Part shown: one piece after another, positions 2,381-51,478 of the stretch
How the letters are laid out: the number at the start of each line of letters is the position of its first letter
Position numbering within the stretch: position 1 is the stretch's first letter
Source: Raillietiella orientalis
Lineage: Eukaryota
Direction: 5' to 3'
DNA: 64,000 bases
Assembly (NCBI GenBank): GCA_036172245.1
Contig: JAYWIR010000007.1
Coordinates: forward strand, 868,001 to 932,000
The notes under the pieces: generated by a model
What the model was told of the DNA's origin: nothing
The model's input: the letters and a program-made list of their open reading frames with translations, nothing else
Database searches by the model: none
Made by a program: the position numbers and the translations under genes

Positions 2381-3720
2381 GTTGCCACCCGTCACACTGG
2401 GGCGTTTATTTTGAACAAAAAGAAACTTGAGAATGGTGGGACACGTTGTCCCACCCTTCTCAAGTGCCTGGCAAGCCAGCAGCCTGTGGGGTTAGCGGTA
2501 CGCTGACCAATGAGATTCACCTTGGCAGCAGGAGGGCGGGGGGGGGGGGAACAAAAAGGAAAATAAAACTTAAATGAAAATACTATGGAAATACTATGAA
2601 GCGCCGGGAAGGGATCACAGTTCGCTGAAGGGAGTCTTCTGCATCCTTTGCAGAATGCCAGCAAGATCCATCTGCATAGCACCCAAGTGGGACCATCCGG
2701 CTGGTATCCGCAGAAAGCGAACTGGACGACATCCCTCTTTCTTCCTCTGTCGGCTTCTCTCCAGGCCACCACAATTTCGCAAATATAGCAAAGAGCTGCT
2801 AAGGCTGCGGCTCGCGGTAGGGCATTCCGCATGAAAAAGAATCGCGAAACGCCCTGGGGTTGGCAACCGGAATCTGCATGGTCGTACCAAAACGCTTGCA
2901 TAGGGGCCGGGGGCAACACAGTCCACAAGCAGTGCGGGAGGGATTCCCATTCCGCGCTTCGGCGACAGTCCGGGATCACGCTCCCCAGCGTCCAGTTATG
3001 TCGGCGGGCGTTGAAGGGGAAGACCCCAATGCAACAACAGAAGTGACGAATCCTTCCACTTCAGTGGGAGGGTGCTGCTGTCTACGTACTCTGGGGGTCA
3101 CTTCAAATCTTCGCTGTGAATACACAGCAGCCCGTCCGCATGGAAGGACACTTGGGATTGCAGCGTCGGTCAGCTGCTCCATGGTCTAGCCATCCTTTTC
3201 CTCCTGCTTGCACTCTCGCAGGAGACCTCTCATCTCGCCGGTTGGATACTGCCAGTTTCCTGCCTTAGGGAGAGCGGCGTTACGGCAAGGGAGGTCAGCT
3301 CCTCGCACTCGCTCATGCTGGAGCTCTCCAGGATCTTCCGCAACGAGCAGCCGAGATCTCAGGCAGTTCCACCTCTCCGAGCTCCGCTCGTTCAACTTCC
3401 AGCTGTATCCTGTAGCCAGGTGCTACAGCTGGTGGGACAGCAGGACATCCAGCCATTCTCCTTCGCCAAGGTGACCATCCTTCCAAGGTTTCCGCGCTTT
3501 CTCAGCTTGCGGTCTCGGAACAAAAGATGAGACCTACGTGGCTGGCGAGGAGGCGTGCGGGAACGCACCAGGGGGATACCCCCTGGTCTCCGATTCTTCT
3601 CTGCGATGACCGACGTTGCCCATCTCAGTTGTATCTCCATGGAGAGTGGGGCAGGAAACCCGTTGGCGCAAAAGAGCAATTTTCAATAGAGTGGCAGGTA
3701 CCATGCTGAAGAGAGCTGGG
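2381..3720 (-). mobile_element. 5'-truncated Tx1-like LINE: ORF2 C-terminus plus 3' UTR
   Basis: Minus ORF 2392-2979 has CRRSAEWESLPH...RNALPRAAALAALCYICEIVVAW, homologous to the other copies. Terminal AATAAA plus hairpin at 2381-2410. Confidence 0.85.
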
Positions 3721-4520
3721 GCTCTAGCGGATGGCTAATGGCAGTTGTTCGCGAGTGGTGCGCGATTCGCCAGTAGGCTCTCAGTCCTACTGCCTGTCGA
3801 GCAACTTGTGCCGTTGGTAGGCACGCCTGGAGAGCTGTGATACACCTGGTCGCCGCTCCAGTTCCCACAAATTCCCCAGCCTTCCCTTTGGGACGCTGCC
3901 GTCTGGCCAGGGCATCGAGAGCAGCGCTCTCACACTCCCTTCGTCTGACTGCTGGACTTCCAGGCGAACTCATGTGGATCACACGCCCAACCTGTCCACC
4001 CGATCGCGGAAAATGCGTTAGCCCTACTGAAGGAAGGCATTTCTTGTCAGAAGCAAGACAGCTTCTTGAAAGAAAACGAAACTCTGCTGCTTGATGTTTT
4101 TCTCGCTGCCGCACGACGGTCTTCACGGCGTGGCGGCTCCAACAAAGGCGTGGCGGCACTGATGCCTGGCTGGCTGCGTGGCAGAGTGCGTGACAGCGCT
4201 TCAACGAACCCCCACGTTTTTCTCCGGCTAGAGCGACTCGTTCTTTCCATGGAACGAGCTTTGTGGGTGGGTGCAGCGGCCAGTTGGCGTGCCAACTGGC
4301 CGCATAGCAGCTTGGCGTTGCCCGCGCTCTCTCAGGGAAACTCCCACCCTGTCAGCAGGCTGCTGCACTCTCCCTCAGGGAGCAGGGCAGCGCCTCTGCT
4401 AGGGCTGTGGCGGCAGCCCCGGTCCTTTGCAGTGGCTTCTTCAGGAAGACGGACGGAATGCAGGCGCCTGCATAGCGAGCCACGCTACTAGTTAGAACTC
4501 GACTGGACGCCTACAGGGAC

Positions 4521-4934
4521 GCGTCGTCCTGCTTCCTCTGGCAGTGCGGTCCGTATGCTGGGCGGACATGCAAGCACGCATGCAAGGCTGTGCCGTAGCG
4601 TTGGGATGCTTCGCTACGGAACTGGCGACGCCCGCAGTGAGAAACACCACCAACCCGTTCAAGGCCATCGCGCGCCAACCGGAGCCGGCGCCATCGGAAA
4701 CGTCCGATTGCCATCCGGCGACGGTTTCGGTGCCCCCGCACCGCCACAGCAGCTGCCGTGCTGGGGGGCAAACGCAGGAAGAAGCAAACGAAGCGACGGG
4801 TTTCGGATGCCGGAGCGTCGCACCATGGCAGCGAGACTTCGTGGATGCGAACGCCGTCTCCCTGCGCGATCGCACCCGAGTCTGCGTTGCGCGCAACGCG
4901 AACCGCCTCGGCGGCTCCCTCGAATCTCCGAAGA
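4521..4934 (+). repeat. Right arm of the ~413-bp inverted duplication (partner 1626-2038)
   Basis: GCGTCGTCCTGCTTCCTCTGG...CGAATCTCCGAAGA is the reverse complement of 1626-2038. Confidence 0.9.
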
Positions 4935-5199
4935 ATGGGTATCTGGCGAAAGGATGCGAGCACGGTTGTGCCGGAGCGTTCATGAAAAAAAAAAATCACA
5001 TGCAGATAAAAAATAAAAATAAAAAAACAGGAACGTGGCTGCTTGCGGTTCAGAAAAAAGAGAAACAAAGAGGAGGAAAACAAACAACCTGGGAGGGCTC
5101 TCCGAAACTCGCAGGGCAAAGAAGAAATTGTTTGCAGCATTGAGTCAGCTAGTAGGGGGATGGACACATAAATTACGGGTGGGTGGGAATGGAGACACC

Positions 5200-7900
5200 G
5201 GGGATTGCTGCCACACTTCTAAATCCTTCTTGAGGTGTTGGGGATCTCCTTGATGACTTCCGGTATCATCGAAACAAAAAATCAGACACATTTCCACGAC
5301 ATTTCTGGATACACATTTTGTTTTCTTCGCATCCACACAGTAGTACACATGATGGAAATTCTTTTCTTTGAACACTCAGCTTTGGAATTTACGCGATTTC
5401 TTCACAGTCCTGTTGTTGGAAATGGCAACGATCATTGCAAAGACACCTAAAGGTGTATGAATTATTGGGGACACCGCTGCAATGGATAGTCAATCACCCT
5501 CGTTTCAATCCACTCCAGCGCATCCATGTAGTAACCGGACCTCAAGTTTCAACAACATTTTTTTCCAATCTAAAGAATACATCCTTACTCAAGTGCTCAA
5601 TGCTTTCGCAGTTCCTTTCTCCAGCGGCTACAAAGATACGTAGGACACGATAGAGATGCAGAAATGGCAAACAAGAAATGATTGGGAACTCATGACACGC
5701 TTTATGAAAGCACATATGAGCTTTCTGTTCCAATGTCAAGAAAGTGTTACAAACATTCGAAGAGTACGTTTCGCCCATTCTCTTGAAAGCATGCAAGCAC
5801 ATGATGCTTCATGAAATGGTATATAATTTAGAACGGAACCGACGGAGAGAACTGCATCTATCTGAAGTTCGAACAATACCTCCTCTTCATCAGAAGCGGT
5901 AATAATTTTACGTTTTCGTGGGAAAGGTGCGCTCATGAAAATTGGCGAGTGCCCGAGAAGGAATCGCGTTATCTGCACAGCTTAGAGGATCATTAACATC
6001 AGCACAGAAAACCACCAGTGAGTGTACAACAGTGAACCCTTTTTGCAGGAATAGGACGGGCGATAGCGCCTTGTATATGACGGGATGGATTCCGAAACTC
6101 AAGAATTTCTCGATTCCTCATACGGCAGTGTGCTCCTTGAGCTTCCAGCCTCGGTGTCAAACCATGCATCAAATGCCTCAAAAAAGCAATTGGTGCCAAG
6201 GGCTGCCAAGCGTTCTCGTTTCAGTATCCACTGATGTGAAGCACTCGCAGCTTCTAAAAGAAGGATGAGCTGATCTCCTAAAAAATGCCAGCCGTGCTCA
6301 CGGAAAACTTGCACAAATTTATGTCTACGTTTGTGTTTTGCATTCCAGTCGCTGGTGCGATGCATGTGCTATGTGAAAAGGTAGAATTCCCTTCTGTATT
6401 TCGACGAGAAACATGAGGAACCGATGCTCGTCGAAAGAAAGAAGGTAAGGACGCGTCTTGATTCAGTTCCTGGCTTTTCAATGTTTGGCATGCTGCATGT
6501 CGCAATCCTGTTGTGCCCACATTATGGCAGCCTTCATTTTGTTGCAGGATTCATACTATTCTCTTGTGCCATGTACCATTCATACGATTCTCTCATGCCA
6601 GATAGGTTTGGAAAATCCTTGCAAACAAATGCTCGACATCTGCTCGACTATCTTCGTCACAGGTTGACGTAGCAACTGAATTCGGTCCCGCATTTGTGGT
6701 GCGAAAACGTCTCGGTTCACCGACAAGGCAACCGTAATTTCTCTTCTCCTCGAAACCGTAATTCCTGTTCCTTCGAATCTCCTCGGAAGCATTCGATTAA
6801 GCAAATTCGATTCATGTTTTCCATCACTTGCTATGCTCTGAAGCAGAAACAAACTGTCGTCCTTCTCGCCATGAAGGAGCAAGCCGTCTCATCTCGAATG
6901 TGTGGAACATGCTGCAAATGTCAGTAGTCGTGCAGTTTAGGTTGGGCATCAATAGGAAACAAGAGGATATGGTTTACCTCGGGCCTGGATCAACCCGCTT
7001 GCCCCAGTGCTGCCCTTCCTCAAAAACTCAAGGGACAGCAATCGACCGGAAAAGTGAGAAGTAACCTGCCTCATTGGAGGCAAGAAAAAACTTTTCAAAG
7101 CGTGGACAACTCGGCAGCCAGCGGACGCTGCGACCCTGAGTGTCCTGCCAAAAGGACTTGTACGCTGGGGCGAGGTGCTCGCGATACCTCCGGAGGAGGT
7201 GAAGTGGTCCCCAGCGTGTTGGGACAGTGGCACCCTTCCCCTCAAGTAGCAGGAAATGGCGTTGCTGTTGTTGCATGGAAGAATCCCATGCGGAGCACTC
7301 CTCTCTCACTGGACACGGGGGAGTGTGGATGCCAACTACGGAAGTTGCGGGGAGAAGAAGACCTTCCCTCACTCATTAATTGACTGTGTTGCTCTCCGAA
7401 CCCTTTGGAATCGACTATCGTTGATCCTTAAAATCCCAGTAGCGACCCCAAGAACATTTTCATGGAGTTTAGGTTGGGCATCAGTTGGGAACAAGAGGAT
7501 ATGGTTTACCTCGGATGCGAATCCAAGAAACACCTGTTCCAAAAAATTCGGATATCACTGACTGTTCGGACTCCTAATGGTCAAGGTGAATTCGATGGCA
7601 ATGGATTCAGTTCACAGCTTCAGAAGAGACAATGTCCAGTGCAATAGAATGGTAAGTGACATTTATGCTAATATTGACAACAGCAACATGCTGGAACCGA
7701 CGTTCGATTCAGTAATCGACAACTTAATGTCTAGCGGATGCACCTCATTAATCCGTGGAGCAATGATTCCAAGGAAACGAAAGCTCGAAGAAACACTGTG
7801 CCATGTGAACACTGTGACATAAGAATGTCAAGGTTGCCGGGATACACTTATGGCAACGAACGGTATAACCAGGTGTTCTACCACATCATTGTGAATTTGC
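5200..7900. other. Unidentified decayed coding-like block, lower in GC than the flanks, interrupted by a LINE fragment
   Basis: Broken ORF pieces, including an F-box-like stretch (5736-5978 minus, VLNYIPFHEASCACMLSREW) and a CxGC motif near 7825 (+). No confident family assignment. Confidence 0.3.
6983..7465 (+). mobile_element. Internal Tx1-like ORF2 zf-RVT fragment flanked by a 49-bp direct repeat
   Basis: PLK*QEMALLLLHGRIPCGALLSHWTRGSVDANYGSCGEKKTFPHSLIDCVALRTLW matches the other copies. Repeats at 6934-6982 and 7466-7514. Confidence 0.85.
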
Positions 7901-8230
7901 CTGACCTTTATTATTATTTTAATAATAAATGCCCCGCCAAAAAACGTGTGGAAAACCTGGCCTCCCTCCCCAGCTCGGAATTGCGCCGAAGTCGGCAGGT
8001 CATCGACAAGGAGCGGATGCTGATCGGATTCCTCAGGGAAGAGCTGCTGACACGGCCCTGCAATGTTTCTCCGGGGACTCAGGATCGACTGGAGACCGTG
8101 CTCAAAGGCAATTTGCATGGAAACCTCTTCCCCATATTAGACCTCCAGAATCTCATTGGGGTATTTGCTGCCGTCCCCAAGATCTGCGCCGACAGCGACT
8201 CCAGGTGAGCTCGCGCCCAACCCCTTCTGA

Positions 8231-10500
8231 TTGACACCCGGTCACGCCAGGGCATTCATTAATAAAATAAACATACATGCATGCGGCAGGAAGTTTAATT
8301 TTGCCACGTTGCTGATAACTACGAGAAGGAACCTGCCGGGAACTGGCACGCAAGCCAGCGGCATTCGCCTCGGCAGCACAGGGAAAGGGGAGACAAACAA
8401 AAAGAAAGATAAAAGAAAGATAAAACAAAAAAAATACAAAAAATTTAGGGTGGGGTGGGCGTTCGGAAAGGGATCACTCCATGCTGGCAGGTGTCCTCTG
8501 CATCCTTGTAAGGATGCCGGCAGGTTCTCATTTCAAGAATCCCAGATGAGGCCATCTTGACGCTGTCCTCATGAAGAGGACAGCAAAATAGATGACGTTC
8601 CTGTCGTTCCGGCTACTGGCGTTGCTCCATACAGCCACGTTCCCGAGCAGGTAGCAGAGCGCTGCTAGGGATGCGGCCGGCGTGAGGGCGTCGCGCAGGA
8701 AGACGCACTTTACAACGTCTCTGGCGTTGCCACCAGGGGTTCCAAGGGTAGTGGCAGAGCGTCCCCGAAGGAGCCGGAAGGCCAGAGCCCGCATTGGAGG
8801 CTTTGTGGTTAAGGCTTCCGCGTGTGGTACCATGCGTCGTGGGTTCGAATACTCCGGCAGAAACTGACGCCACTGCGTCGTTGGATTCCGAGTTTCTCCT
8901 GCAATGGCGCTGGTTGGCCGAGACATTCGGGAGTGGCACTGGTGGTCGTTTAAGCCGTTGGCCCATGATGAAGGCCGGAACAATGGGAGTCGACCTTCGG
9001 GTCCTTCCAGGAATCAAGGGGTGGGGAGTTCCCCCTCCGGTCGCACAACGGAGAGCGGACCCCCCACACCGGGGAGACCCCTCCGGTTTCAAGATGGAGC
9101 AGGAGCCTTCACAGGCACCTCTCCAGCTGTTCAAAGGTGCGGAACTCCCATATTGCGGGGGGGGACCCTCCGAGTCAGCAAGCGAAAGCGATTCCCCTGC
9201 GGGAAGCTACAGCGCCCCTTCTGAATTTCGGAAGCGTCCCTTCGGGATTCTCTTCAGAGGAGTGAACAGGAGCGGTTCCCTTGCGGGTTCCCTCCGGAGA
9301 AGAAATTCCTACTAGCGGATCCTTTCCGGGTTTCCTTCGGAGATGAAATGGAGAGGACCACCCCCCTTCTGGGGTGCTCCCTCCTGAGAGAATGAGGAAG
9401 GAGATTCTCTTCGGAGACAATCCAGGGTGGGAGATGCGACCCCCCCTGAAGGAGGATCCCTACGCAAGCGTAAGAGTAATGGACTCCGAGCCTTCCTGAA
9501 TTCATAGGGCGGAACATTTTGAGGTACCCCCTATTTTGAAGAATGAGCCCACTAGAAGGTGCGAGAGGGACTTTCACTCCCCGCACCTTGCACAGTTCGG
9601 GTCCACCCCTTCCCCCGTGTACAGTGATGCCGGCAGGCGTTGCACGGGAGGTCCCAGTGCAGAAGCATCTTTGCCGACTCGTGCCACTTTGAGGGGAGGA
9701 TACGGATGTTCATGAGCGCCAGGGACCACTGCAGTTCTTCCTCCGGAATATCCAGTAGCACACCCCGGAGAAAAAGTTATGAGGTCGAGCACTCGGGATC
9801 ACAGCGTCGGTGAGATGACCCGTCGTTCACTCGCCCAGTCCTCTTCTTCTTCCGGAGATTTCCACAGTAACCCCTCCCATTTTGCCGCGAGGTTGCTGTC
9901 TATGTGTTTCCTGAGGGAGGGCAGCGCGGCGTCGAGGGAGGTTCTGCTTGCGCATGCACTTTTCACAGGATCTTCCAGGATCTCCCGCAGTTGTTGCGCG
10001 CGTACAGGAAATGTTCCGCACATGGCTCCTGGATCCTCTCCCACGTACGAACGGTTTCCTGCAACCAGGCACTTCCGTTCGCGGGGCGGCACGAGATCCA
10101 TCCGTTGTTCCTGGCCAGCATGGCCACCTGCTGAAGGTGCAGTCCGCAGTGGATGAGGCGGCGTGGAGGGCGCGCAAGGAAGGACGCGAGTTCCACGCTG
10201 CCGGTGGCTTGCTGGACAAGAATAATGCAGGTTGGCACCAGGTGGGTGCTCCATAGGGTTATCACGAGGGAAAGTGTCCGAGACTGGAGCTGCAGCTCCA
10301 TTCGCTCCAGCGAGGAGGTCAGGAGGTCTATGCCGACATCCCGACGCGGAGCACACATGCCCTTCAGGCGGACTCGGCGCCTCCCTTTGCCCCAGAGGAC
10401 GATCCAGACGTCTTTTGTCCACTTTCTAATGTTGCATGGCAATGGGGAAAACCCTTCTTCTGCGTGCACCGTCGCGACCCTCCTTTTCGCTGGAACCTAA
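8231..10500 (-). mobile_element. 5'-truncated Tx1-like LINE, split by an insertion at ~8790-9545
   Basis: ILPSKWHESAKMLLHWDLPCNACRHH (9552-9761) continues into RDALTPAASLAALCYLLG...RWPHLG (8528-8760). Family 3' terminus at 8231-8260. Confidence 0.85.
8790..9545 (+). mobile_element. Putative tRNA-headed SINE-like insertion
   Basis: A-box-like GTGGTTAAGG and B-box-like GGGTTCGAATAC near the 5' end. Related sequence at ~20030-20370 (+) and at 15660-15760/16600-16680 (-). Imperfect flanking duplication GAGCCC..AGG. Confidence 0.5.
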
Positions 10501-11009
10501 GGTGACTTCCGGAACGCGTCCAGAAGGCAGGAACGACTCTATCCCGGCAGTTGGGCTCGACGCTTTAACTCCAACCATTTTCAGGATCGGTTGCTTCGTC
10601 AGGTGAGTCTTTGCCGACACTCCTTAGCGGACTCCGACTTCCATGGCCACCGTCCTGCTGCCCATAACAACCAACACGTTTTATGGAATGTGATGGGCGT
10701 CGCATCAAGCGCCGTAACCCAACGTTTGCTTCGTCGAAAAGGGCCAGTCCTGCTTACCCAAATGGGTCCACTGGGCACTCGTGGATCCGAGCTTCAGCTT
10801 TCAAGCAAGCCGGACTTCTCAATCATTTCAAGTTTGAGAATAGAACGAGGTCATTCCGGCCCCAAGGCCTCGAACCATCCACTTTACCTGATGAGACTCC
10901 GTTCTTTTGCCACTTCGGCGTGCTCCAGCTGTCCCGAAGGAAACTTTGGAGGGAATCAGCAGCTACCAGATGGTTTGATTCGTCTTTAGCCCCTACACTC
11001 AGAGCTCTC

Positions 11010-12190
11010 ACGACCAGTTTGCACGTTCGGATCGCTGCGGACCCCCACCGGAGTGTCCTCCTCTGGCTTCGTCCTGTCCAGGTAAGGGTCTACCATCTTT
11101 GAGACAAGGATATGCTGCAGCACGCTGACGTCCAAGCTGACCAGCCTGATAGCCACCCGTGGGCTGAGGGGCGGCGCGAATGAGATCGCCTTCAGCCCCG
11201 CCGGGGCGAATTCGAAGCTGTGCATCATCTTTCGCCAGGAGGAGATTGTGGACCACATGATTGTAACGAATATGTTCCAGCTTTCCGACCGGCGGAAGAT
11301 TCTGCTCGCGAGCGACCTCTAGGAAGAGGTAGCCAAGGTACCGGAGTACGATATCGCTAGCCAGAAAACCGAAGTGAAGCTGGGAAGGAAGATCAGTACT
11401 TTCGAGTTTCAGATTGGTGTGCCTTCCCAGCACGTGGTTCGGAGACCTCGACGAGGTGTGCCACCTAGGAGACACCATCAGAGCCTTAGGGAGGGAAGGG
11501 GGATTGAAGATTCTGAAGATACAGTGGCAGTTCTGAAGATACGCTGGTGTCCTGAGGACACGAGTCCCATGCCATTTTAAGGGGAGGGTGGAGGTCTTCA
11601 TCAGCATCGGAGGCCACTTCAGTTGTTCCTGCGCAACTTCCAGCAGCTCGCCCCAGCGCAAAAGTCCAATAGGGGTGGTAATCCGGGCCGCAGTATCACA
11701 TAGAATCCCCGTTTTCCATTCCCCGATCTTTTTCTCCGTACCGGAGATTTTAGCGACCACTTCCCATGCCGCCGCAGTGTTGCTGTCCAGATGGTTTCCG
11801 AGGGAAGACAGCACTGCAGCGGGGGGAGTTCTTCCTGCCCACGCTCTTCTTGTGGGGTTCTCCAGGACCTCCCGAAGCGTTAGGCGGTCATTGCGCGCAA
11901 ACAGCTGCCTTCGCTGTTGTTTGGCGCGCTGCTCGTTGCTCCTCGCCCATGAGTATACGGTTTGCTCTAGCCAGGCGGATCCGTTAACTGGGCGACAGGA
12001 GAGCAAGCCCACATTGTTCCTCATCAGATTGGCCACTCTCTGCAGCTGCAAACCGCCGTGGCAGACTTGGCGGCGACGACGGAGCTCAAGAAAGGCGGAT
12101 CGCGCTCGCAGACTGGAACGATCTGAAAAGATCGGTCCGCAAGTTCTGCTGCCGGTTCCCCTTGCACGTGCTCCCCCGCGGCTTCGGCGA
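11010..12190 (-). mobile_element. LINE ORF2 fragments (RT thumb LRYLGY piece and pre-zf-RVT region)
   Basis: ORF 11008-12051 is homologous to the 9700-10200 region (HLDSNxAAxWE, LPLKWH), with an RT motif-7-like LRYLG near 11335. Confidence 0.7.
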
Positions 12191-12790
12191 TGCCACCCGG
12201 GTTCACCGGGACGTTTATTAAAAATTCTTCATCCGTCAGTACAGAATGTGGTACAAGGCCCCACTAACGGCCACGCAATACCGGACCTGCTGGGACACCG
12301 GGACGCAGACCGGTGTGAACTCTCCTCGGCAGTGGAAGGGGATGGGGGAGAAAACAAAAATAAAATAAAATTCAGAAAAAAAAAACAAAAAGAGTTTGGA
12401 GGGCCGGGAAGGGATCACATTCCACTACGGGGAGGGCCCATTCTTTGCAGGATGCCCTAGAGGTCTTTCTTCATTCTTCCCAGCTGGGGCCATCCTGTAG
12501 CTCTCTGCAGGAAGCGAACAGCATACTGGATGACGTCCGTCACGTTGCAATCTTCATCTTCGGCATCACTCCAGGCCGCCACAATTCCACGGATGCAGCA
12601 AAGTGCTGCCAAGGCTGCGGCTGGACTGAGGGCGTCCCGCACAAAGAGAAGACTGTAAACGTCTCTGGGATTGCCACCAACCGGTATCCCACGCGGCTTC
12701 GGCAAAGGCGTGGCCAACAGCAGAGCGTTTCTGTAGGCTTGCATATTCTCCCGATGCCCGGACGTCCAGCATCTTGCGCAGTGCAAGGCG
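12191..12790 (-). mobile_element. Tx1-like LINE 3' end
   Basis: CARC...RDVYSLLFVRDALSPAAALAALCCIRGIVAAW...GWPQLG followed by the complete structured 3' UTR. Confidence 0.88.
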
Positions 12791-12799
12791 AAGGCCGAG

Positions 12800-30576: not shown

Positions 30577-32077
<1,501 letters not shown>

Positions 32078-38100: not shown

Positions 38101-39083
38101 CTGAAACTGTTATAACAATAATGAACTCGAAATTCATAAAGGAAACTCAAATTCATTTAAATAAAAAGTGATAACAAGACTAACAAGGAATGTATTTAGA
38201 AAGTATACAATGCTGCACTGAGATACAAAGTGTTTAGAAGATGGATCATAAATCAAAGTACAAACAGCTTACGACAGAACAAACAGAACAAATTTAATTT
38301 TAGATTCTAATTACCTAAAATTTTATCATCAATGCTTTTGATCTAAAATTCATAAGAAATCATGTAAAAATAGTATGAAAGCCAAAATACTTTGAAAAAG
38401 TATTTTGGCTTTCATAACTAATTACAGAAACACTTTGAAAAAGTTGTGTTTTTGTAATAAGAAAGAAACAGACCAGATGGAAACTAAATGATGTAGCACA
38501 AGATAAACAACAATAATCTTCAAAGCTTACTTTATGGTATAAGTGTTCTCACTTGATTAAGATGCTACTCTCAGATAACAGCACACATTTCACATGATGT
38601 AAATCATACTGAAGTGTGGAACAAAAATATCAAAGCTTTCCATAAAAGTGCATTAGAGAACACATGAAAGTATTCTACAATTTCACAGCTACACACATGA
38701 ATAATTATGATCAATCCCTATTTGATGCTTACTAAATAAATTAATGTAATGATAAATGCATATGAAATAAGAACACATGCATAATCATCAATGTGAGCAG
38801 ATTACATGGAAATTCACATCACTTTAAAAGAATCCTATATTTTCTGTTCAAACAAGTTGGAAAAATTCTTTTTAACCTTTTTTTCATTAATAATTTCCTC
38901 TTCTCCACGAGGATGCCAAGAGACTTTAACAAATCCTTTTCTTATATGGCAGTTTTCATAGTCACTATCTTCATCTGAAGACTCATCTACCACATTTTCT
39001 GAAACAATGCCAACTTCAATATCTCCATTTTTCTTTATTCTGTACACTTCATCTCCATGATAAAAAAGAGGATCTTCTTCCAT
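32152..39083 (-). CDS. UBE2O: E2/E3 hybrid ubiquitin-conjugating enzyme UBE2O, multi-exon
   Basis: Exons encode [43 protein letters not shown], the UBC domain [27 protein letters not shown]...[20 protein letters not shown], then EPYYNEAG and [12 protein letters not shown]. Not every internal junction was resolved; an acceptor near 39145 implies an upstream non-coding exon. Confidence 0.95.
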
Positions 39084-42000
39084 CGCGTTTTGAAATTAAA
39101 TAAAACATCAGATCACAGCATGTCATAAAACAAGCTTAATTTTGCTGAAAAGAAAAAAATTGATTAAAATACATACAAATTATAAGGAAGTATCAATTAT
39201 ATTATATCTCTCATTAAATCCATTGATCAAATCACCAAGACTTTCTTGAGAGTAAAAGAAACATGAACATACAGAACTGATGTGTTTCTTTTAAACATAA
39301 AATCTGTGCAATGCAGCAAAATTCTGTTCATAAAAAAACATTATGATGCTTCCTAAATTCAACTTATTGAAACAAATCATAAACCAATATCCACTGATTT
39401 CATACACAATAATTAAATATCCTTTAAATACTACAAAACTCATGATTCCCAATATTTAAATGGATTCTTCATTTCTTCAATCAATGCACATGGCATAAAA
39501 GTAACACATGGTAAAAAGTACCTGACTTTGAAGAATCTGTTATAAATTTAGTTGAATTACAACCTGGATGCTGCTCAAAAATTCTACAGAAAAAGTATTC
39601 AGTTGAAGACAAGAAAAGATACAAATGAAAAACTAAACAAGTTCATAACCCAAACAAGCAAAATGAAGAAACTTATATAGGAAGCACGCATTGTGTGGAA
39701 GAAATATCAGCAATGGAGAGCAATGACCTTCCATCACTTGGGCATGAAGGTGAACACTAACATGGAGAATTGAACGGTTTCATAGTAGTTTTGTCCTCAT
39801 CAACTATGGATTCAGTATAGGCTTAATTCACCAACAGCATTCTGACATTAGAGCCACACACTACTTGTCCATTACATAATTTATTCTACATGGTGGACAG
39901 GAATCAAACAAAAACTACATTTGTATTCTAATCAACAACTTATTTATTTGACTATACGTCTAATATGGTCATCAAAGATATTCTATGCATGAATACTTTT
40001 ATGGGCAAATTTGGATGCAGTAATACATGGAACAAATCTACCTAGGAACACTGATCCAAAAAAATGCTAACAATGTACACTACCTTTTTAGCAACTAAAA
40101 CAATGAAATTAATACTATTAGAACTGCACTGGTACTTTTTTACGGTACCGGTGCAACTGAGAAAGTTGACACGAATGGCCACAATGCAGCAATGCAATGC
40201 AAAATGATTTCGACTGCGATTCTTGGAATTTATGAATTTTCCATCTACACAACCTGTCTCAAAAACCGAATGTGGGAATGAAGGGCAATAGTTAGCTCTG
40301 ATCAGTGGTTGCGACACAAGTAAATTCAACCGTTTTTCGAGGCCTTCTTTACTAAACACAGACTTAGCATCGATTAACACTTTGTACAAAACTTCCCTTA
40401 GTCTCTAAAAATTCAGTAGGTTTTATTTTCTAACCGATCCGAAGTTATTGCAAGGAAAACACAAATACGTTAAGGGACTGTCATTTTTATCATGAACTTA
40501 ACAAATGCCTCCTAAGATCCTATACAACTACTTACATGAAACTGGTCACTGAATCCGGGTTATCAAAAGAAACGAGCTCCACCAAGGAGAGAAAAGACAA
40601 AAATCTTATGCAAACCTCGATCAAATGCACTTCCCAGCTGGCACTTATGTACTTCGAATAACAAGCAATTACGATGGCACAAATATCCTAATAGGTTGGC
40701 CTAAAGCGGTTAAAAAATTCAGACATCACAATTTCGACAGTCCAGTGAGCGCTGCCTGCATGTCCTTCCATTAATTTCATTAATTCTCGAGCACGATTCG
40801 ACATGAAATCCGCAGAATAAATAAATGAATAAAAAATTCAGGGGCAGATAGCAAAGCAAACCCACGAAATGCGAATTGGAATACGTTTCTGTGAATACCA
40901 GTTTTCAGTAATTGTGTCAAAATAACTTTTCGTGGTCCACGAAATTTCCTAGGAATTTGTGAATCTGGTGAAAGCGGGATCTAATCGAAGTTTGATTTGA
41001 TTTTGATTTTGATTTTCGTGCATCCATTGCTTTTGATTTTCGTGCATCCATTGCATGTGCACTTTGACCTGCCAATCCTGAAGCTCGGAACGCATGCAGA
41101 TCGTACCTCTCTCCTTGTACAACGTAATCCCTAAGCTGCCTGACAGAAACTGTTTTCATGTACACGTGAACACAAAAACCAAGCACACATGGATGATGTA
41201 CACATGACAGTCAGAAGGATCAGAGATAACAGAGACTGCAGAAAGTCAAGAATTTCACTTCGATTGCAAAACAGCAACGCTGAAGGACCTCCGGAAAACA
41301 TAGTCGAGTAAATAACACCACTTGTGTCACAACTAATTGTTAATTTTAAGTTTATTCCAATGAACATTATACGTCTGACCGGTAAGAATGAAGTTCCACA
41401 AAGCTAAAACCTCTAATAATTGTCCATGCAACGGAGGGACTTTTCCAAATAATACTTCCTTTCTAAGCAATACGAGCATACATTAGCAGAAAATGAATAG
41501 TAACACAAACATGCAATTTTAGAATTTTCTGTCTAGCTTTTCTGTCTGTAATTTTCTGTCCTTGTTAGTAAGAATAACCACTTTAGACCTTGCGAGTTGT
41601 TAGAAATTCAAAGTTCAGATTTTGTCAATCTAGCTATGTTGAAAGTTCAGTTGCAAGAGATAATGTCAGGATTCTTCTGCAAAAAACTAATACAATAAAA
41701 CCAAATGTTGGTCGATTTTTTTCTTCTTTTAATTAATCTGTCAAGCGAGCATGGAATGAATCCAAATAGTCTTTCTATGCATTCCCCGAACTTTCTTTAA
41801 TCGGGTTGACTTTCATTCCTGAACTGAGATGATGCACAAAAGTAATCCTAATAATATGGGTTGAGTCAGTCTTATTAGTCAGCTATTCTGGAGATATTTT
41901 GTATATTTCAATGTTTGTAGTGTAGTGAAACTCATAGCATGCATATGTTTCACATACCTTAGAAAGGTGCATACGTCCTTTAAGGCTCTAAATGAAAGCG

Positions 42001-42949: not shown

Positions 42950-45050
42950 TATTAATCGATCCGGCCACATTTGCATGAAAGGAAAAGAACTGGAAGGATT
43001 CACGAGTGTAAGCGAAACGAGGTGGACTCTGGACCCCGTTTTTCAAGGAGGAAACGAGTGCGCGCCCGCATTACTCAAGCCTCCCAGCAGCATCCATAGA
43101 CATCGCGAGAGCAAGTGGAATCGATTGCGATTACGTGTTGTTACAGAGGGCCAACTTGCGCTATCATGCAGACATGCCGGATACCGAGGCGATGGGATGG
43201 GGGAGAGTTTTTCAGACTTCTCCTTGAAGATAGCAGAGTTCTGCTGTCAGTGTATCGACCGCTTTTCGGAAAGTCTTTGGGAATGGCGAAGATCACTGCA
43301 GCTGCGATATGGAACACATAGGGGAGGCGATCTCCGTGGCACCACTCTTGTGGCATGGAAGTTTGCACGATAAAACTGGACCAGGTACAATAGGCTCTTC
43401 GAAAAATGAAGAGAGAAGAGTGTGAAAGTGTGCATGTGCTCCAGCTGGCCATAGCTAGTGATGTTCTTCGGTGCTCTCTGCACTGATACACTCTAAGCCG
43501 CTTCTTCTTGAGTAAGTGGGCCTTAGCATTCACAGTACACGATTGTATGCTTCCACCTTGAATATCTTGTGGAAGGATGCGTCTCCTCCGTCCTCCAGTG
43601 CGGCACCCGTGGAACGGTTTCAAAGGTTTCCTCGCCCTTCGTGTGAAGTGGACGACTGGCCGCGATGACTGATGGTAACCCCGCAGTAACCAGGAGGGGA
43701 CTCGCAACAGGAAGGAGATTATGCCGAGGATGGTACTCCAGCTTCACGCCTTTCTATCCTTCTACCTCTTCCTTCTCCTCCAGCACAAGAATCTTATGAG
43801 CCGTATCAGAAACTATCTGTTGGATAGTAATCCGAATTTGAGTTCCACTCTAAAGGACACATCCTTTACAGTACACGATAAGCGAGATACACGCTTTTGT
43901 TGGAACGTAAAGCGAGAAGCGGCAGCAAAGGAAAGCAATCCATTCTGTCTGTCGCCGGCATCTTCAGAAGACTATGGAGACGAGTAGCTGATGGACATAG
44001 GCTCTCCAGCTGCTGCTGCTACCGCTCGGTATGGCAATATTCAGTTCAGAGGGTGGGTGACTCCTTGCCAGTTCTCAAAAGTACTGGAAGCTTGCTCGAG
44101 ATTGTTTACCCTCTGTAGTGCTCCATGCGCATGAACCTCGTAATGCAATCCCCTGACAACACTGGCATTGCATCCCTGTCGGGAAGCGAGTCGACCGTAG
44201 CTACCTTTCTCAAAGAACAAAGCACTTACAAGAAAGCTCGAGGCTACGACGCTCGTGCATGTTGTGGGTGAGTGTTCTCTTCGAAGTCTTTTACCTGGTG
44301 CGCTGGTCTGCAAGGTAACCACGTTGGTGGAAGACGGGAAGCTGTAAAACCAAAGACTTCGCTCTGATCTCTTCTAGGGAGACGAACCTCACAGCTTCCT
44401 GTCGCCGGCCATGGAGCGAATTCGAAGCTGCGATATAAGGTAAGCAGCTGCTGCTAAGGTGACCGGCTCGTGCCGAATAAAATGCCCTGCAAGTGGAATC
44501 GATTCGTGAGCTGCAGTGCGCCTCGCATCTGGAATGTTTTCCGGCTTTCCGACAACACTCGTGCCTTTCGGTGTGATCTCGAGTGAGTGGTAACGACCCG
44601 TTCCACAAGACTGCACGTCTGCTTGAGAATGGAACGGTCACCTTCCTGCGATCCTGCAAGCTGAACCCTCCGCGTTTCCTGAACGCCAAGCGGTCTGCAT
44701 CGGGACTGAACCGTAGTCGAAAAGAGACAACGGTCTTTTCCCATGCATGTACGTGCGATGGCTTCCGTTGAACAGTGGTTTCGAGGGCCAAAGGGCTATA
44801 GGGGACGGAGAATCAGGTGTGGCATGCAGTTTCTGCTCAATGACCTTGATCGACCGCTTTCGTATATCGAAGATGGTGAGAACACCAATGCTGGCGAGCT
44901 ACGGAGAGCACGGCGCTCAACTTCCTCCATGCACCGGTGAAGACTTGATAGAAAGGTCCGACGACTTACCACACAAATATAGCTTAGATTAATGGAGTGA
45001 CATAATAACAAACTGAAATAAAATGGTATAGTAAGAAGATGCCCCAGTTG
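42950..45050 (-). mobile_element. Highly decayed non-LTR RT relic
   Basis: Remnants TGR...ITPKG...KPEN and SRQGC across frameshifts. Clade not determinable. Confidence 0.45.
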
Positions 45051-46678
45051 GTTACCTACCACTGAGCAGGGAGTGCCTTCACACGAAAATCCCTCTACTA
45101 TGAGTGATCCATTCTATCCCCCATCAATAGTGTTCTTGGGTTCCATTTCTGTTCTTCGGTTTTAACGCTAGGGGTAGCATTAAGTGGAACCTCATTACGA
45201 ACAGGAAATGCGGTTGAAAGACGGTTTCGTGGAATAAGTTTTGATCAGTAAGGATTCATTTCATCATCCTTACTGATCAAAACAGAAAGAACAGAAATCT
45301 CACGGGATGATTACTCGTTGCAATCACCAAACACACACCAGACAAATCAGAGCCCGCGTTCCATTAGTAACTAAAAATAACTAGAAATGAGAATCTCTAA
45401 GAAGACCATTACTCGGTTAAACTCGGAAGTATACCTCATGAAGCATCAATCTTTCTTAATGAGACAGAGCTCGGAATCTGACGCCTACATATCTCTGCTG
45501 CATGAGTCCACTGGATGTTTACGTTTGGGGAAATCTTGACTTCTTATTGAGAACAAAATGTTCCATGGAGCTAACTCTGTTTCGAGTCTTGTTTGCTTAA
45601 AGCGAGCTCGAAAACAGGTCAATGACGCAACAACTAATTTCAGGAACAGTGACTTTAATTGATTCCCCTTTCAGAAGTTTTTTTTTTACCTATCCCATAT
45701 TTTACAGCAGTTCTGACCACATGCCTGTGGGAAATGATGCTACCTCAACGATTTTTCGAACTCCATTGTGCGAAATTCACATAGCGTATGCGATACATTA
45801 GCTGTACGGAAGCTGCTTAATTAATGATAGAAACCGAAAACCATGAATTCTTCTCTTCCTCACCCAAGAGTCTCGAGAAGCCACGAGGACTGAAGATGCA
45901 GTCTACCTATCCCCTTTTTACTCAGCAATCCTGCTTACTGAATCTTCCTCCTTCTTCCCTAGTGAAGCACTGAGATGAGAGTATTTCTCTCTACCTTCTT
46001 TTAGGCATTTCCTTAGCATCAGTGCATCAAAATCTCCATGTTTCAGAGTTGAAACCCATAATTTTTTTTTTCCTTCTCCTTTTCCCTTCTCCTAATCTCC
46101 ATTACTGTATCTTTCTGTTTCTGCTTTTGATCGCTATTTGCTTTTGAAATTTTCCTGTAAAAGGAAAATTCGGACCACGAACGGTGTTCTTGTCTCCACA
46201 AACTTTCTGCACGAGAAAAATATTTTTCCGGATGTCGCAAGTGTTGCAGGACCTTTCGTTTAGCGATGCAATTTCTGTGGAGCATCGGTTTCGAGCATGG
46301 CTTACGATCCGCCTGGAAGCCTTCTTTCATGCCAAATGACGAAATGATTCTCGAAAGCCTTCGCGAGTCATCGATCGCTATGAATTCCAGAGAGCAAACC
46401 TCGGGGCAAATTGGGTGGCTACGTGCAACTTAGGCAGAGGCAGTAACATTGACGACACTGATGTCGCAGTGCCGATTGAGGGATGCGGATGCTGAAAGCG
46501 CGCTTGATGCGCTAATGAGCACACTGGATAACTGGAGAATCGGAGTCTGAGAGATTCGAGGAAGGATGGAAGATTTCAAGCGGGAAGGTTTCAGGGAAAG
46601 GAAGGCACTCCATCCTCGTTCAAAGATGCGATTCGACTCCCGAGGTGCGGCGCGATGGAGCGGAAACGCGAGCTCCCT

Positions 46679-46749
46679 ATTGGCCAAGAGCCTCCGCGTT
46701 ACTGTTCGGTCGGTGCTCGTTCAATCTGCGTTCCCCTCCGATATAAATA
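46679..46749 (+). promoter_or_regulatory. Histone H2B promoter: inverted CCAAT and TATA box
   Basis: ATTGG at about 46679-46683 and TATAAATA at 46742-46749, about 110 bp upstream of the ATG. Confidence 0.7.
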
Positions 46750-46856
46750 GCTTCCGCCGAATCTCCGACTCGCCGAGTTGCTGAGTGCGGTGTGGTGCGG
46801 CGAACGTGTGCTTCTCTCCTCGTGGAAAGTGCGTAGCAGAGGTGTGGAAGAGTACG

Positions 46857-47231
46857 ATGGCTCCCAAGTCGGGAAGTGGGAAGGCGGTGAAGAAGGCTGG
46901 TAAAGCTCAGAAAAACATCACGAAAGGAGACAAGAAGAAGAAGCGGAAGAGGAAGGAAAGTTACGCGATCTACATCTACAAAGTGCTGAAGCAGGTGCAC
47001 CCGGACACGGGCATCTCGAGCAAGGCCATGTCGATCATGAACAGTTTCGTGAACGACATATTCGAGCGCATCGCTGCGGAGGCGTCCCGCCTGTCGCACT
47101 ACAACAAGCGCACCACCATCACCAGCCGAGAGGTGCAGACGGCGGTGCGCCTGCTGCTGCCTGGGGAACTGGCCAAGCACGCCGTCTCGGAAGGCACGAA
47201 AGCGGTCACCAAGTACACGAGCTCCAAGTGA
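46857..47231 (+). CDS. H2B: Histone H2B, replication-dependent type
   Basis: Intronless [55 protein letters not shown]...AVTKYTSSK. Confidence 0.99.
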
Positions 47232-47285
47232 GCACCGTGCGGTTGCTGTCGCCCGCGGCCCACCTTGCCCTACCAAAACCACCAA

Positions 47286-47326
47286 GGCCCTTTTTAGGGC
47301 CACCTTCGTGCTTCTGAAAGGGAGAT
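47286..47326 (+). terminator. Histone 3' stem-loop and purine-rich downstream element
   Basis: GGCCCT-TTTT-AGGGCC at 47286-47301, flanked by CCAA/ACC, with AAAGGGAGAT about 16 nt downstream. Confidence 0.93.
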
Positions 47327-47540
47327 CGATGAAGCCGCGCATGCGCGCCCCGTGGAGGGTTGCGGGAGTGCATGCGGACGTTGCCGCCCTCCGTCAGGAG
47401 GAGCCCTGCCTCATCGTTCTCCAGAATGCCCAAGGTCAAGAGTTTACACGACGTTCCCTTGGGGAACGGCTCCAGGTCCACCGAACTATTGAGGAACTGA
47501 TAACTAACGAGAGTGGTTACTGCGGAAGCGGTGGGATGTT

Positions 47541-49155
47541 TTTCTCATCTGGTGAAGCCGAGGTGTTTATACAAAATGAGCACATGTATCTTATAATACA
47601 TCTACGATTGTCCTACATGGTAGGGACATAGGTATCGGCTGTCTATTTTATCCTGGGAGGGAGGGCTGGGATACAAGCGGGAAAGGACACTAATGGAAGT
47701 GAGGATAAATAGTACATGAATAAGTTACCGCGGGAGGGGGAAGATACAGGTCCTTATGCAGTGGTATATTCCCGCCATTTCGTCCTTGCTGTTTGATGAA
47801 AGAGAAGACCATCGAAAGGATCTCCCCGCAGAAGGGGGAAGGCCATACTCTAAGCTGGTTGCTTCTTACGCTGGAGTTCTTGCAGCGCTCTCGACCGGAC
47901 CACGGAGGAAGCGGAGAACTGCAATCAGCTCTGCTACAGGGAGCTCGTTGCACTGGAAAGAGTCGGATATTCTTGATATGCTTGGTACAGTCGGAGGGGA
48001 GAGAGATGGCATGGACCAAGTGCTTCCATCCTCGCCGAACTCCCGAGCATTCAAGGAGCACGTGCGGCGGAGTCTCTTTTTCGCCGCAGCGGCTACAGTG
48101 CGGGGATCCACGTTTTCCTGAGTCATGGTGCTTCCTGGAATTGCTGGGTGGGCCTCAATGTAGGAAGAGGAGCGTATTGGTACGCAGCCTCAGCAGGAAC
48201 GTCCAGCGTCGAGACAGGAGGGACAGAAATTTGCAAAGTTAGGCTCACGCTGCCTCCTAGTCACTGCCGCTCCTTCCCTGCTTCCAGAAAGTTGCCAGCG
48301 GGGTGTTGCGGAACTTATCCCAAATTTGGGATCTCCCATGATTCCATCCAGTTGTTTTCTACCGATTGACCTTGGAGAGCCAGGAAAGCTTGCGTGAGCT
48401 CCTTCCAGAATAAGCCACATGTTCAAAGATTTCTGGCGCCCTGCAGTTCAGCAGCCCGCATAACCGTGAGTAGGTAGCCGGGGCACCTCGACAGAGTGCT
48501 CGTCCACAGGGAAGCCAGTCCTTGGCTGCCTGCCGTGCGTTTCAGAATTTCTTTTGCCGGCTGACACCAATGTTCCTTCCAGTGGAGGGCACAGATGTAC
48601 AGCCGGCGGAATAAAAGTTCTATCTTAAGGGCGCTCAACGTTTTAACGCCTAGTTCGGCATTTCTGTTAGAGAACAGATGTCTTTGAGTCGCACTCGGGA
48701 TCTGGCCCCTACCCACAGTAACTTTTTCGAGAGAAGTTTTTCTCTGAGTCGGGCATGCGCGGGAGAAATGGAAACAAAAATTAGGGGACCGAGGGGGGAG
48801 GCGGCAAAGGTGTTCCATAAGAAGGCCCGCTTCGAAAGCGGAAGACAGCCTCGCATGAATCGGACCGGCTCCATCTCCGTCTGGTCGAGATGTTCGGACC
48901 AGACATTCTCGATCGAGAAGTTCCCCAGAGGAACCCCTAGGTATTTAAGGTGTTTAGCCACCGGAATACCCAGGCGATCCTTGTCCCAAAGCCCAGCCCA
49001 TGAAGAGTCAGCCCGAATGACCGCGGACTTCTGCCTATTGAGCACCATGCCCATCCCCTCACGAATGAGGTCGAAAAAAGATTTGAGCTTCGCCGCAGGC
49101 GTGGACTGCGGTAGGAAAAGTAGCAGGTCGTCGGCCTATGCCGCTACCGGCGGCA
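47541..49155 (-). mobile_element. Tx1-like LINE ORF2 3' half with inactivated YADD
   Basis: A*ADDLLLFL (TAG at the Tyr position), VLNRQKS, LKYLGVPL, LSKRAFLWNTF. Degenerate family terminus at 47541-47572. Confidence 0.85.
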
Positions 49156-49925
49156 ATGCCACCCGGATACGCCGGGACGTTTATTCAAACTCTTCCATGG
49201 TCAATACAATACGTGGTACAAGGCCCTACTAACGGCCAACATTTCTCCGGACCTGACGGGACACCGGTACGCAGACCAGCGTGACTCTCCTCGTCAGTGG
49301 AAGGGGGAAAAAACAAAAAAAATAAAAATAAAACAATAACCGAAAAAAAAAAAAGTTTTTTGAGGGAGGGGAAGGGATCACTGACCACTGGAAGGAGGGT
49401 CCATCCTTCGCAGGATGCCCTCGAGGTCCTCCTTTAATCCACCAAGCTGGGGCCATCCGGCAGCTCTCACCATGAAGCGAACAGCATACGGGATGACGTC
49501 CCTCTCGTTACGAACATCTTCGTCGTGGGCATCACTCCAAGCCGCCACGATGCCTCGGATGCAGCAAAGTGCTGCAAGGGCTACGGCTGGCTGCAGGGCG
49601 TCCCGCACGAAGAGGAGCCGGAAAACGTCTCTGAGCGCTCTGCCCACGGGGAGCCCGAGGGTCGTCCCAAGACGTTCCCAAAGGTGTTGGAGGGCAGCAC
49701 AATCAACAAGAAGATGGGGGAGCGATTCCTGCTCCCCGCACCTGGCACATTCAGGCTTTACTCTCCCCCGCGTCCAGTGGAAGCAGCGTGCGTTGCATGG
49801 TAGGCCCCGATGCAACAGCAACAGCGCCGACTCTTGCCACTTCAGAGGGAGAATCCTGGATCCATTCAACACTGGGGGCCACTTCAGGTCATCCGTCTGG
49901 ATACCGAGCAGCTCGCCCCGGCGGC
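49156..49925 (-). mobile_element. Tx1-like LINE 3' end (best preserved zf-RVT copy)
   Basis: ORF 49378-49872 LPLKWQESALLLLHRGLPCNARC...CARCGEQESLPHLLVDC, followed by the full structured UTR. Confidence 0.9.
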
Positions 49926-49929
49926 GTGA

Positions 49930-50480
49930 AAGTGCAGGAGGACAAGGACTCTACGGTGAGCCTATAAACCTTCAGCAGGAGCGCAAAGTACAGACTGAAG
50001 AGCAACGGCTGACGCTATCACCTTGCCTTACCCTCTTTCTAATTGGTGCGCCGTACACGTGGCGGCCTCTGAAAAAGGTGTTAGTTAATGCGTGCAGCTC
50101 CAAGACGCGCGCAATTAGTTAGATAGCGAGGATGGAAGGCCAAGCTCTAGGAGGAGTTTCTGGTCGACGCAGTCGAACCAACCAACCAACTTTTTGCAAA
50201 TCCAACAAGAACGCAAAGCTTCCAAAACTTGTTCCCCCGCTATGAGCAACCTTAGCGGTAGCAGATTCGGCCGCGGCACGTGGCCAGAGGAAGCCTGAGC
50301 CGCGAATCTTATGGATTCTTTGAGGACGAAGTCGCGAATCCTCAGGAAAGGTTGATGGCCGTGTAACGGACTGGAATCAAGGCGGTGCTCCAGCCTTGTC
50401 TGCAACTATGTTGCGCCCCTGGTCGGGTCTGACGGAAGCGCGAAATTCCCTTTCTTCTCAGGAATGACCGGAGGATTAAG
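49930..50480 (-). mobile_element. Tx1-like RT fragment
   Basis: FDCVDQKLLLELGLP and RVRQGDS, homologous to 13500-13740. Confidence 0.75.
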
Positions 50481-50849
50481 TCTCTTCGCGTGCACTCCGC
50501 GTGCTCCTATGGAATGTTGACGGTCGTGCAGACGATGCCGAGAGGTGTGCGATCGCTGACTCCATCAGAAGTTGCCATGATGCACTCCTACAGGAGATGA
50601 GCAGAGTCCCCTGCGCAGGTGATTGACGATATCGAGAACTGCGGAGGAGCGTCAAAGACAAATGCGGGTGCACACACTTTGCGAGGTCGCATTTCCCCTC
50701 GAACCGGACACACGGCAGGAGTCGCGGGGTGGCGTTTCAACGGGGAGGTCACGTAGACCAGCTAGTGCTCCCCAGCAATCCGACTGCATCGACCTCGCCG
50801 TGACAGGGTCTCCCAACTCGACCGACAGGGGATGGATTTTCCTGAGTTA

Positions 50850-51478
50850 CTCAGACGGCACTGGCAGGATGCAGAGTGCATCTCACGTCGTAGTGGGGGA
50901 CTTCAACGTAGGTTTGCTTTCAAATGACTCACTCCTCCAGGGCCTGCTCTCGAAAGCCAAGGGCTCCGTAGAGCGGCGCACACACCACCAACTTGTTGAC
51001 AGACGAATTCAAATCCATCGACCACGTGTTCCTAGTATTATTAGCTGTGTTCGCGGGTGGGTCGGCAAGGATGAATACTGTCCAACTGGTCGGATGACTC
51101 CAGGACGCAGGAATGGCAGGGATGCCATCCACTGGATGCGAATTTTCGTACGAAACATCTCCAGGTGGTCCCACCTGGGCGCAAACAGGACTCAGCTCTC
51201 TAGGATCCTAAACAGGATCTAGAGGACCAATCCATGCGCAGTGTGATCCTTTCCCCGCCCTCCCCACTCCCAGACCTTTGTGCCCTCCCTACCTTTCACC
51301 TTTTGTTTGTTTTTTTGTTCCTTTATTCCTCCCCTCGCGCGTTGGTTGGACCTCGCCGGTTTTTGCTCCGGCAGCTAGCTTGCTCTTGTGGAGTGGTGAG
51401 CCCTTGGGTTCACCACAAGAAATTAGAATGCACTTTTATTTTGTATAAATAAATGCCCCGGCAAATCCGGCTGATAAA
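50850..51478 (+). mobile_element. LINE APE remnant joined to a Tx1-like 3' end
   Basis: VVVGDFN endonuclease motif, then RDAIHWMRIFVRNISRWSHLG. Terminus AATAAATGCCCCGG-CAAAT-CCGGCTGATAAA. Confidence 0.75.

Follow-up and report, generated by a model that had tools for sequence, protein, structure and literature searches.

Long interspersed nuclear elements (LINEs) of the L1 clade that lack a tail or end in a hairpin have already been published (PMC3747384). L1 families without a 3' repeat account for 9/233 in flowering plants and 5/15 in green algae (PMC3747384, Table 3), and the stringent L1-clade LINEs of plants and green algae, such as the monocot 1a lineage and L1-1_CR, possess a conserved 3' hairpin (Ohshima 2013, PMC3747384). 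In the L2 clade, the protein encoded by the second open reading frame (ORF2p) of UnaL2, ZfL2-1, and ZfL2-2 recognizes a 3' stem-loop (PMC4176376). In the target-primed reverse transcription (TPRT) of R2Bm, a protein-bound structure in the 3' untranslated region (UTR) positions the template, and 3' homology is not needed (PMC10499050, PMC11194090). SART1 is stringent, yet requires and copies its poly(A) (PMC7265360). A transition from stringent to relaxed recognition has been posed as a hypothesis (PMC3747384, PMC4176376), and L1/Tx1 elements of ticks have been listed without detail (PMC12914980). Here, we describe a lineage of L1-group LINEs in a 64,000-nucleotide stretch of the Raillietiella orientalis genome (contig JAYWIR010000007.1, positions 868,001 to 932,000 of the forward strand; hereafter, the window), in which many families share one terminal hairpin.

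The lineage probably shows a new form of stringent 3'-end recognition in an animal L1 group, and it is not a new kind of element. In the monocot elements the stem covaries while flank and loop are conserved; in the present lineage it is the loop that differs between copies, on an invariant stem. L1-1_CR carries a poly(A) end (PMC3747384), which is lacking here. The fixed 4-nt spacing and the hairpin-only inserts seen here find no mention for plant or algal L1-clade LINEs in the accessible part of that paper. The L2 elements belong to another clade, and the identity of the loop sets their specificity (PMC4176376), whereas here one stem is common to many families and the role of ORF2p is proposed from the copies. 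UnaL2 ends in TGTAA repeats (PMC3747384), while no terminal repeat is present here. Positioning of the template by a bound structure is proposed here as in R2, which differs in its restriction-like endonuclease (RLE) and its single ribosomal DNA target (PMC10499050, PMC11194090). A preliminary description of the window had regarded a hairpin end as unusual for L1/Tx1. L1-clade examples of such ends are already published. A literature search, conducted outside most subscription papers and Repbase Reports, turned up neither the present terminus nor inserts of the hairpin alone, and these inserts are new here.

The terminal module and its exact 3' end

The 3' terminal module reads AATAAA-YGY-stem-loop-TG-NNAA. 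Across the 210-Mb genome, the pattern AATRAAYGYCCCGG-N4-8-CCGGGTG matched exactly 1,850 times, as against 0 times for the reversed control, and 1,728 of these matches continued as NN-A-W. Within the window, the 14-base core AATRAAYGYYCCGG occurred 11 times with at most one mismatch, versus 0.30 expected, and 0/100 shuffles reached 11. The motif is thus confirmed as real, exact, and genome-wide, and far larger than the window alone implies. An Rfam scan of the window found nothing at the motif, the sole match being a 28S rRNA fragment (RF02543, model 675-1444) between LINE pieces at 10424-11134 on the minus strand.

All 13 diverged 3' ends of the preliminary description were recovered, to within a few bases. 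Motif matches on the minus strand lie at 2382-2410 (stem decayed), 4955-4984 (heavily decayed), and 15764-15793 (AATGAA variant), and those on the plus strand at 7924-7954 (decayed; 3' of an ORF2 C-terminal fragment at 6980-7420), 17135-17164 (decayed), and 51448-51477 (single stem change). The copy at 8231-8260 (minus) ends in TCAA and has a candidate duplication, TCAGAAGGGG, at 8221-8230 and 9215-9224. The decayed module at 47542-47571 (minus) lies 3' of an ORF2 zinc-finger region (47975-48166), and the copy ending at 49156-49185 (minus) has entered a sister ORF2 near codon 664 in the sense orientation. A short family-A-type copy (18655-18684, minus) is antisense within the 3' UTR of the plus-strand copy at 18893-18921, which is itself inserted antisense near codon 1074 of a sister ORF2. 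The end of this plus-strand copy, ACAC (18918-18921), is followed immediately by ACATTCTCCTG (18922-18932), and 9/11 bases match ACACTCCCCTG at 18470-18480. We read this as a decayed target duplication with no A tail, in agreement with the preliminary description.

The 5'-truncated copy at 12190-12219 (minus; ~500 bp, to ~12691) is flanked by a 12-bp duplication at 12177-12188 and 12692-12703, and sits antisense near codon 300 of a sister ORF2. The host element that it splits contains the ORF2 fragment at 12686-13742 (plus), which covers residues 296-648 of family A with ~80% identity and matches RVT_1. The reverse transcriptase (RT) originally assigned to the hairpin-ended family, at 12800-13745, therefore lies on the plus strand and belongs to the interrupted host; family A, its ~80% identical relative, does have this terminus. 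A 5' inversion (twin priming) as the source of the plus-strand RT at 13047 was rejected, because the reading frame continues on both sides of the inserted copy, which has a duplication.

We analyzed 197 distinct ends, most of which were chosen by patterns requiring the motif (120 loci also NNAW) and ~20 for long open reading frames. Exact duplications of 11-20 nt at offsets 0-40 numbered 75 among these ends. Offsets 3-5 account for 43 of the 75 start points (offset 4 alone for 29), as compared with 2/31 in a control shifted by 60 nt (196 ends). The target duplications are 11-17 bp long, with a mode of 14, as left by a staggered cut of 13-15 bp. The last two bases of the element in the 51 copies with a clear empty-site copy were AA (45), AT (5), or AG (1), while their targets showed AA before the nick in 0/51 and AAAA at the duplication start in 0/51. 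The terminal AA derives from the element, not from the target. Taken with the element-derived AA and the absence of A-rich targets, the offset scan puts the end four bases past CCGGGTG, irrespective of the target. The AA and the targets also imply priming without the poly(A)/T-tract pairing of mammalian L1, and the features of relaxed mammalian-type L1, a poly(A) tail and an A-rich duplication start, do not characterize this lineage. The motif as a common landing site was rejected, since the duplications begin after the motif and the empty-site copies lack it. In our best reading, which we consider probable, ORF2p binds the hairpin and reverse transcription starts at a fixed distance from it, without poly(A)/T pairing.

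The flanks of the ends average 57% GC. A genome-wide tabulation of tails found at least six A's within five bases of the end in 7 of the 1,850 matches, at only 6 loci: L208 bears a clear non-target run, L210 has one extra A, and four have no reliable duplication. The A run at L244 belongs to its target. This scarcity, the very sharp end position, and the GCAT ends, which carry a single A, would be expected if the retrotransposed RNA were untailed, or trimmed to NNAA (for example, by exonucleases halting at a protein-protected hairpin), and the RT started at its physical end. We regard this alternative as unlikely in view of the polyadenylation signal. AATAAA or AATGAA is located 21-23 nt before the first terminal A, with a T-rich stretch upstream, and the usual cleavage range is 10-30 nt after the hexamer. 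AATAAA is retained at this distance across otherwise unalignable UTRs, and 1,728 hairpin ends have the full signal versus 150 without its first A, many of which are truncations. TGTA occurs in 82/197 upstream stretches versus 6 in the GC-rich flanks, which are a weak control. At L208, a T and 15 A's precede CACCGAGCTGT, whereas the empty-site copy 1.9 kb upstream reads AG-CACCGAGCTGT; L200 and L210 each have one extra A that is absent from the target. Because the signal stands at the canonical distance and these three loci carry non-target A's, a polyadenylated RNA is favored, with reverse transcription probably starting 1-2 A's into the tail. Trimming would also be expected to leave a wider spread of A lengths than that observed. 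Accordingly, the structured, non-polyadenylated priming end first proposed was retained in part: the integrated copies lack poly(A), their end is fixed to the hairpin, and hairpin-only inserts exist, but an untailed or trimmed RNA is disfavored by the signal distance and the 15-A copy.

The hairpin and hairpin-only inserts

The stem sequence is invariant, while 40 or more different loops of 4-6 bases occur, which substantiates the earlier remark that the stem is kept as the loop varies. The lineage carries the conserved 3' stem-loop beside the end that characterizes the stringent type, conserved in sequence. When folded in the UTR context, the core pairs reach a median probability of 0.84. In the 45 non-canonical ends, the variant stems differ from the canonical one mostly by C>T and G>A; both sides of the outer pair are altered in 47 copies genome-wide, which are spread across many loop types and are largely T...A. 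A search for covariation in 220 ends, and genome-wide at the outer pair, revealed only decay-type changes. The copy with CCCGG/TTGGG (17859-17888, minus), formerly taken as support for the fold through G-U pairs, is therefore best read as ordinary C>T decay, and not as evidence of covariation.

Among 100 listed matches lacking the first A of AATAAA, ~37 showed no trace of the signal by eye. From such signal-less hairpins we picked 20 candidates by eye (L248-L267), and 16 proved to be inserts of 23-28 bp, composed of the hairpin plus NNAA (or NNAT) and flanked by 12-14 bp duplications. The duplication placed directly before the stem matched at 11-12 of 12 bases in 14/20 and at 10 of 12 in 2/20, and the inserts begin 0-4 nt before the G of the stem. 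Examples are found at G000:C2:2838365-2838395, C18:1414532-1414562, and C25:2722983-2723013. Many lie in C-rich targets and belong to the GCGTAC-loop class. Within this class, inspected by eye, 30/32 copies with an altered 5' arm keep the upstream signal, one looks hairpin-only with a mutation, and one looks cut inside the arm (the altered-arm pattern misses targets with C at that position); against this single cut-looking copy stand at least 11 hairpin-only-looking rows in the signal-less set. Duplication-defined inserts of 30-110 bp numbered only 3 among the 197 ends. By a rough estimate, truncation points are ~20-30 times denser over the four bases at the 5' foot of the stem than over the 80 bases that follow, and truncation inside the stem looks rare.

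This pile-up suggests that synthesis tends to pass the hairpin and then stop at its base, as would be expected if a protein holds or protects the hairpin. The hairpin-only inserts suggest that the hairpin acts in the template. Their size, resembling a protein footprint, would also suit an untailed or trimmed RNA, in which case they would be copies of a nuclease-protected 25-nt fragment. Alternatively, the sole role of the hairpin may lie in 3'-end processing or in keeping the transcript stable, with the RT using a very short A stub, as a relaxed L1 would. The overlap of the module with the polyadenylation signal and the absence of covariation are consistent with such a role. We nevertheless judge it very improbable, as it explains neither the targets without an A-rich start for A/T pairing nor the accumulation of truncations at the stem base.

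Under the favored reading, hairpin-positioned initiation by ORF2p, the RNA polymerase II transcript would be cleaved and polyadenylated 21-23 nt after AAUAAA. ORF2p would bind the GC hairpin in a stringent manner, and its endonuclease would nick a family-specific site. The hairpin would then position the template, so that the cDNA begins at a fixed distance, 1-2 A's into the tail, without pairing between poly(A) and a T tract. Release from the hairpin would often abort synthesis at its 5' base, generating the 23-28 bp inserts. The precedents are the binding of a stem-loop by the L2 ORF2 (PMC4176376) and priming without 3' homology by R2Bm (PMC10499050).

Target choice and the endonuclease

The first 4-6 duplicated bases are specific to each family. 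A relative's ORF2 constitutes the flank within 60 bases of the junction in 69/197 cases, 53 of the 69 being antisense. Altogether, 47 ends fall in seven sites of at least three, versus a simulated mean of 0.89 and maximum of 10. Eleven ends lie at codon 66-68 (10 host clusters), nine at the RT motif AVDLxKAFD (9 host clusters), and eight at the endonuclease motif GDFN (5 host clusters), several of these being duplicated blocks: among the family B loci, L066, L069, L074, and L076 have ~9 kb of flank in common (6-7 kb for L071 and L077), and cannot be counted as independent. The fixed codons hit in sister ORF2s are about 60, 68, 98, 159, 300, 492, 577, and 1053, and one frequently hit host is itself a hairpin-ended family. 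With 11/25 ends of family A and 9/24 of F3 at one codon, both families exceed the >20% of flanks of one type by which Kojima defines target preference; family C has 7 ends at one codon. The TCAA-ending family is found antisense at one site of a tRNA-like-headed repeat. For the GCAT family the target logo is based on 7 empty-site copies, and for the TCAA family on 3.

The tRNA-like-headed repeat is diverged, with the head GGTTCGAATCC and a body of >600 bp. It occurs in the window at ~19870-20340 (plus) and at loci L188, L195, L201, L203, L211, L218, L219, and L223, and the sequence adjoining the module at 17859-17888 looks like it by eye. ARAGORN detected no tRNA in the repeat. With regard to a partner short interspersed nuclear element (SINE), one such repeat was examined and had no hairpin end in the aligned part; no genome-wide search was made.

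The Tx1-clade LINEs (Tx1 in Tx1D, Tx1-Mar, Tx1-8_Crp, and Keno) likewise encode an ORF2 with an apurinic/apyrimidinic endonuclease (APE), an RT, and a zinc finger, and likewise have family-specific targets that include other transposons (Kojima 2015, PMC4494074). Unlike theirs, the targets here are coding motifs of sister LINEs and the tRNA-like-headed repeat, and the SINEU passengers of crocodilian Tx1 bear poly(A) tails, in contrast to the present lineage (PMC4494074). Zepp of Coccomyxa similarly forms GC-rich nested LINE clusters (PMC3446292). However, it ends in poly(A) (PMC3747384, Table 3) and has one cluster per chromosome (PMC3446292), whereas here many dispersed families each have their own site. 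The repeat islands of the window (1-26000 and 43000-52000) have 43-64% GC versus a background of 29-39% (28000-42000 and 52000-64000), which matches the preference for GC-rich targets.

The family-specific duplication starts raise the alternative of read-through priming, in which the RNA extends into the donor flank and anneals to the nicked strand, thereby fixing the end and handing the choice of target from parent to daughter. In its favor, L241 shows the family base T at its 3' junction, against C in the empty-site copy, the mismatches between duplication copies lean to positions 1-2, and 3' homology raises precision in R2Bm (PMC10499050). However, the preference of the empty-site copies extends 5' of the nick (for F3, G at -4 in 11/11 and G at -1 in 8/11; for family A, C at -4 in 7/9), which points to read-out of the target by protein, since a 3' RNA extension cannot pair at the F3 positions. 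Moreover, wobble pairing does not accommodate the common deviations, A to G at +5 and C to T at +6, and there is no excess of duplications further downstream, as 3' transductions would give. We therefore hold read-through priming to be quite improbable.

Several observations weigh against hairpin-positioned initiation. The lean of mismatches to positions 1-2 (9/25, p=0.016), although position 1 is also subject to an edge effect, could leave some room for a templated RNA extension. The 15-A run at L208, a single clear example, might have arisen by slippage on TAAA. Elements of the GCAT family finish with T instead of A, and this T is absent from the target in 2 copies, so the tail would start later in this family. 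In addition to the lack of covariation, about a tenth of 177 ends fold otherwise in the UTR context, and 4/20 of the hairpin-only candidates failed in a set that was picked by eye.

The endonuclease itself is short. The distance from GDFN to the next catalytic Asp is 44 residues, versus 53-73 in 181 references, and the domain is ~20 residues short in all families seen (ORF2 ~186-201 in L062, L067, and L070), including the divergent one in L070/L080. The gap covers the YTW...RLD stretch, where the structural model (predicted local distance difference test score 92.7) has just one 3-residue strand. In L1 this stretch holds the minor-groove hairpin that governs the selectivity and activity of the endonuclease (PMC1950540).

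Relationship, neighboring features, and significance

The window RT fragment, used as a query, gave 150 scored matches among 5,210 candidates, and 20 regions around long open frames were taken for element structure. The elements are 5.7-5.9 kb long and encode ORF1 and an ORF2 of 1,190-1,200 amino acids with endonuclease, RT, and zinc-finger parts; the motif is located 200-330 bases past the ORF2 stop. ORF2 matched Exo_endo_phos (N-terminal APE) and RVT_1, as well as zf-RVT at E 6.8e-5, below the curated cut-off. Its best relative in the PDB is human L1 ORF2p (E 1e-43, versus 1e-16 for R2), and the endonuclease model superposes on that of L1 with Z 25.2 and a root-mean-square deviation of 2.4 A over 214 residues. 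The marks of TPRT are present, with 48 exact duplications of 11-17 bp among the 197 ends and inserts from 51 bp to ~6 kb. In place of the single family assumed at first, we found many: three young families are 68-69% identical in ORF2, and UTR clustering of 169 ends yielded 12 groups and 60 singletons, so that one terminal module is common to a radiation of families.

These domains, the PDB matches, and an IQ-TREE analysis place the lineage in the L1 group of APE-type LINEs, L1/Tx1 in the wide sense, as the preliminary description had proposed from sequence. Among named sequences, three vertebrate YTX2-labelled proteins scored highest (178-201 bits), above human L1 (152.6), and one from an alligator scored 145; the closest proteins are the JGI fragments P0012, P0113, and P0137. 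In the IQ-TREE analysis, of 26 rows, which contains no L1 reference row and whose anchor names come from automatic annotation alone, the lineage fell within a 24-row group with Tx1-labelled proteins (96/94 versus two long-branched outgroups). Its branch there is long (1.87) and part of an L1/Tx1 polytomy, and the vertebrate YTX2 clade (97/87) does not include it. FastTree (128 rows, after 33 references for which a motif-based cut failed were dropped) placed it beside one pseudoscorpion and one soft-tick protein with weak support, which the IQ-TREE analysis did not keep.

Family B (L067, L068, and L072) forms head-to-tail tandems via insertion at its own 5' junction, with the 9-bp duplication ATTTCAATC. 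In full-length copies of several families (L064, L068, L225, and L221), the 5'-most ~20 bases contain CGGACGTG or GGACGTG, which we take to resemble an internal promoter element, presumably of the downstream promoter element type. Elsewhere in the window, a 445-residue reading frame (13903-15240, minus) with a CCHC finger and an RLE-like motif has no Pfam match and is presumably of the R2/NeSL/Utopia type. A 134-bp tandem repeat occupies 697-1483. The two halves of a 414-bp inverted pair, at 1625-2038 and 4521-4934, are 99% complementary and separated by 2.5 kb. By eye, we assume four host genes: an EamA-like transporter (23046-24347, plus), an FtsJ-like methyltransferase (31589-32077, plus), a histone H2B-like frame (~46900-47300, plus), and a DHX8-like DEAH helicase (59974-61137, minus).

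Taking these features jointly, we tentatively propose that ORF2p of an animal L1 group may use one invariant hairpin as a molecular ruler, starting the cDNA at the poly(A) junction without primer-template pairing. The 25-nt hairpin would be the whole cis signal, with abortive copies fixed in the genome. Much as homing endonucleases do, endonucleases without the usual minor-groove hairpin loop would provide every family with a separate target of 10-12 bp, in many cases a conserved catalytic motif within sister LINEs.

The lineage bears on how L1-group proteins outside mammals choose their RNA and the point where copying starts. Its intact ORF2s, ~25-nt candidate cis signal, base-exact start, and variety of natural target specificities on a single scaffold together make this question testable. 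It could also supply an APE-type LINE with a short RNA tag for site-directed insertion.

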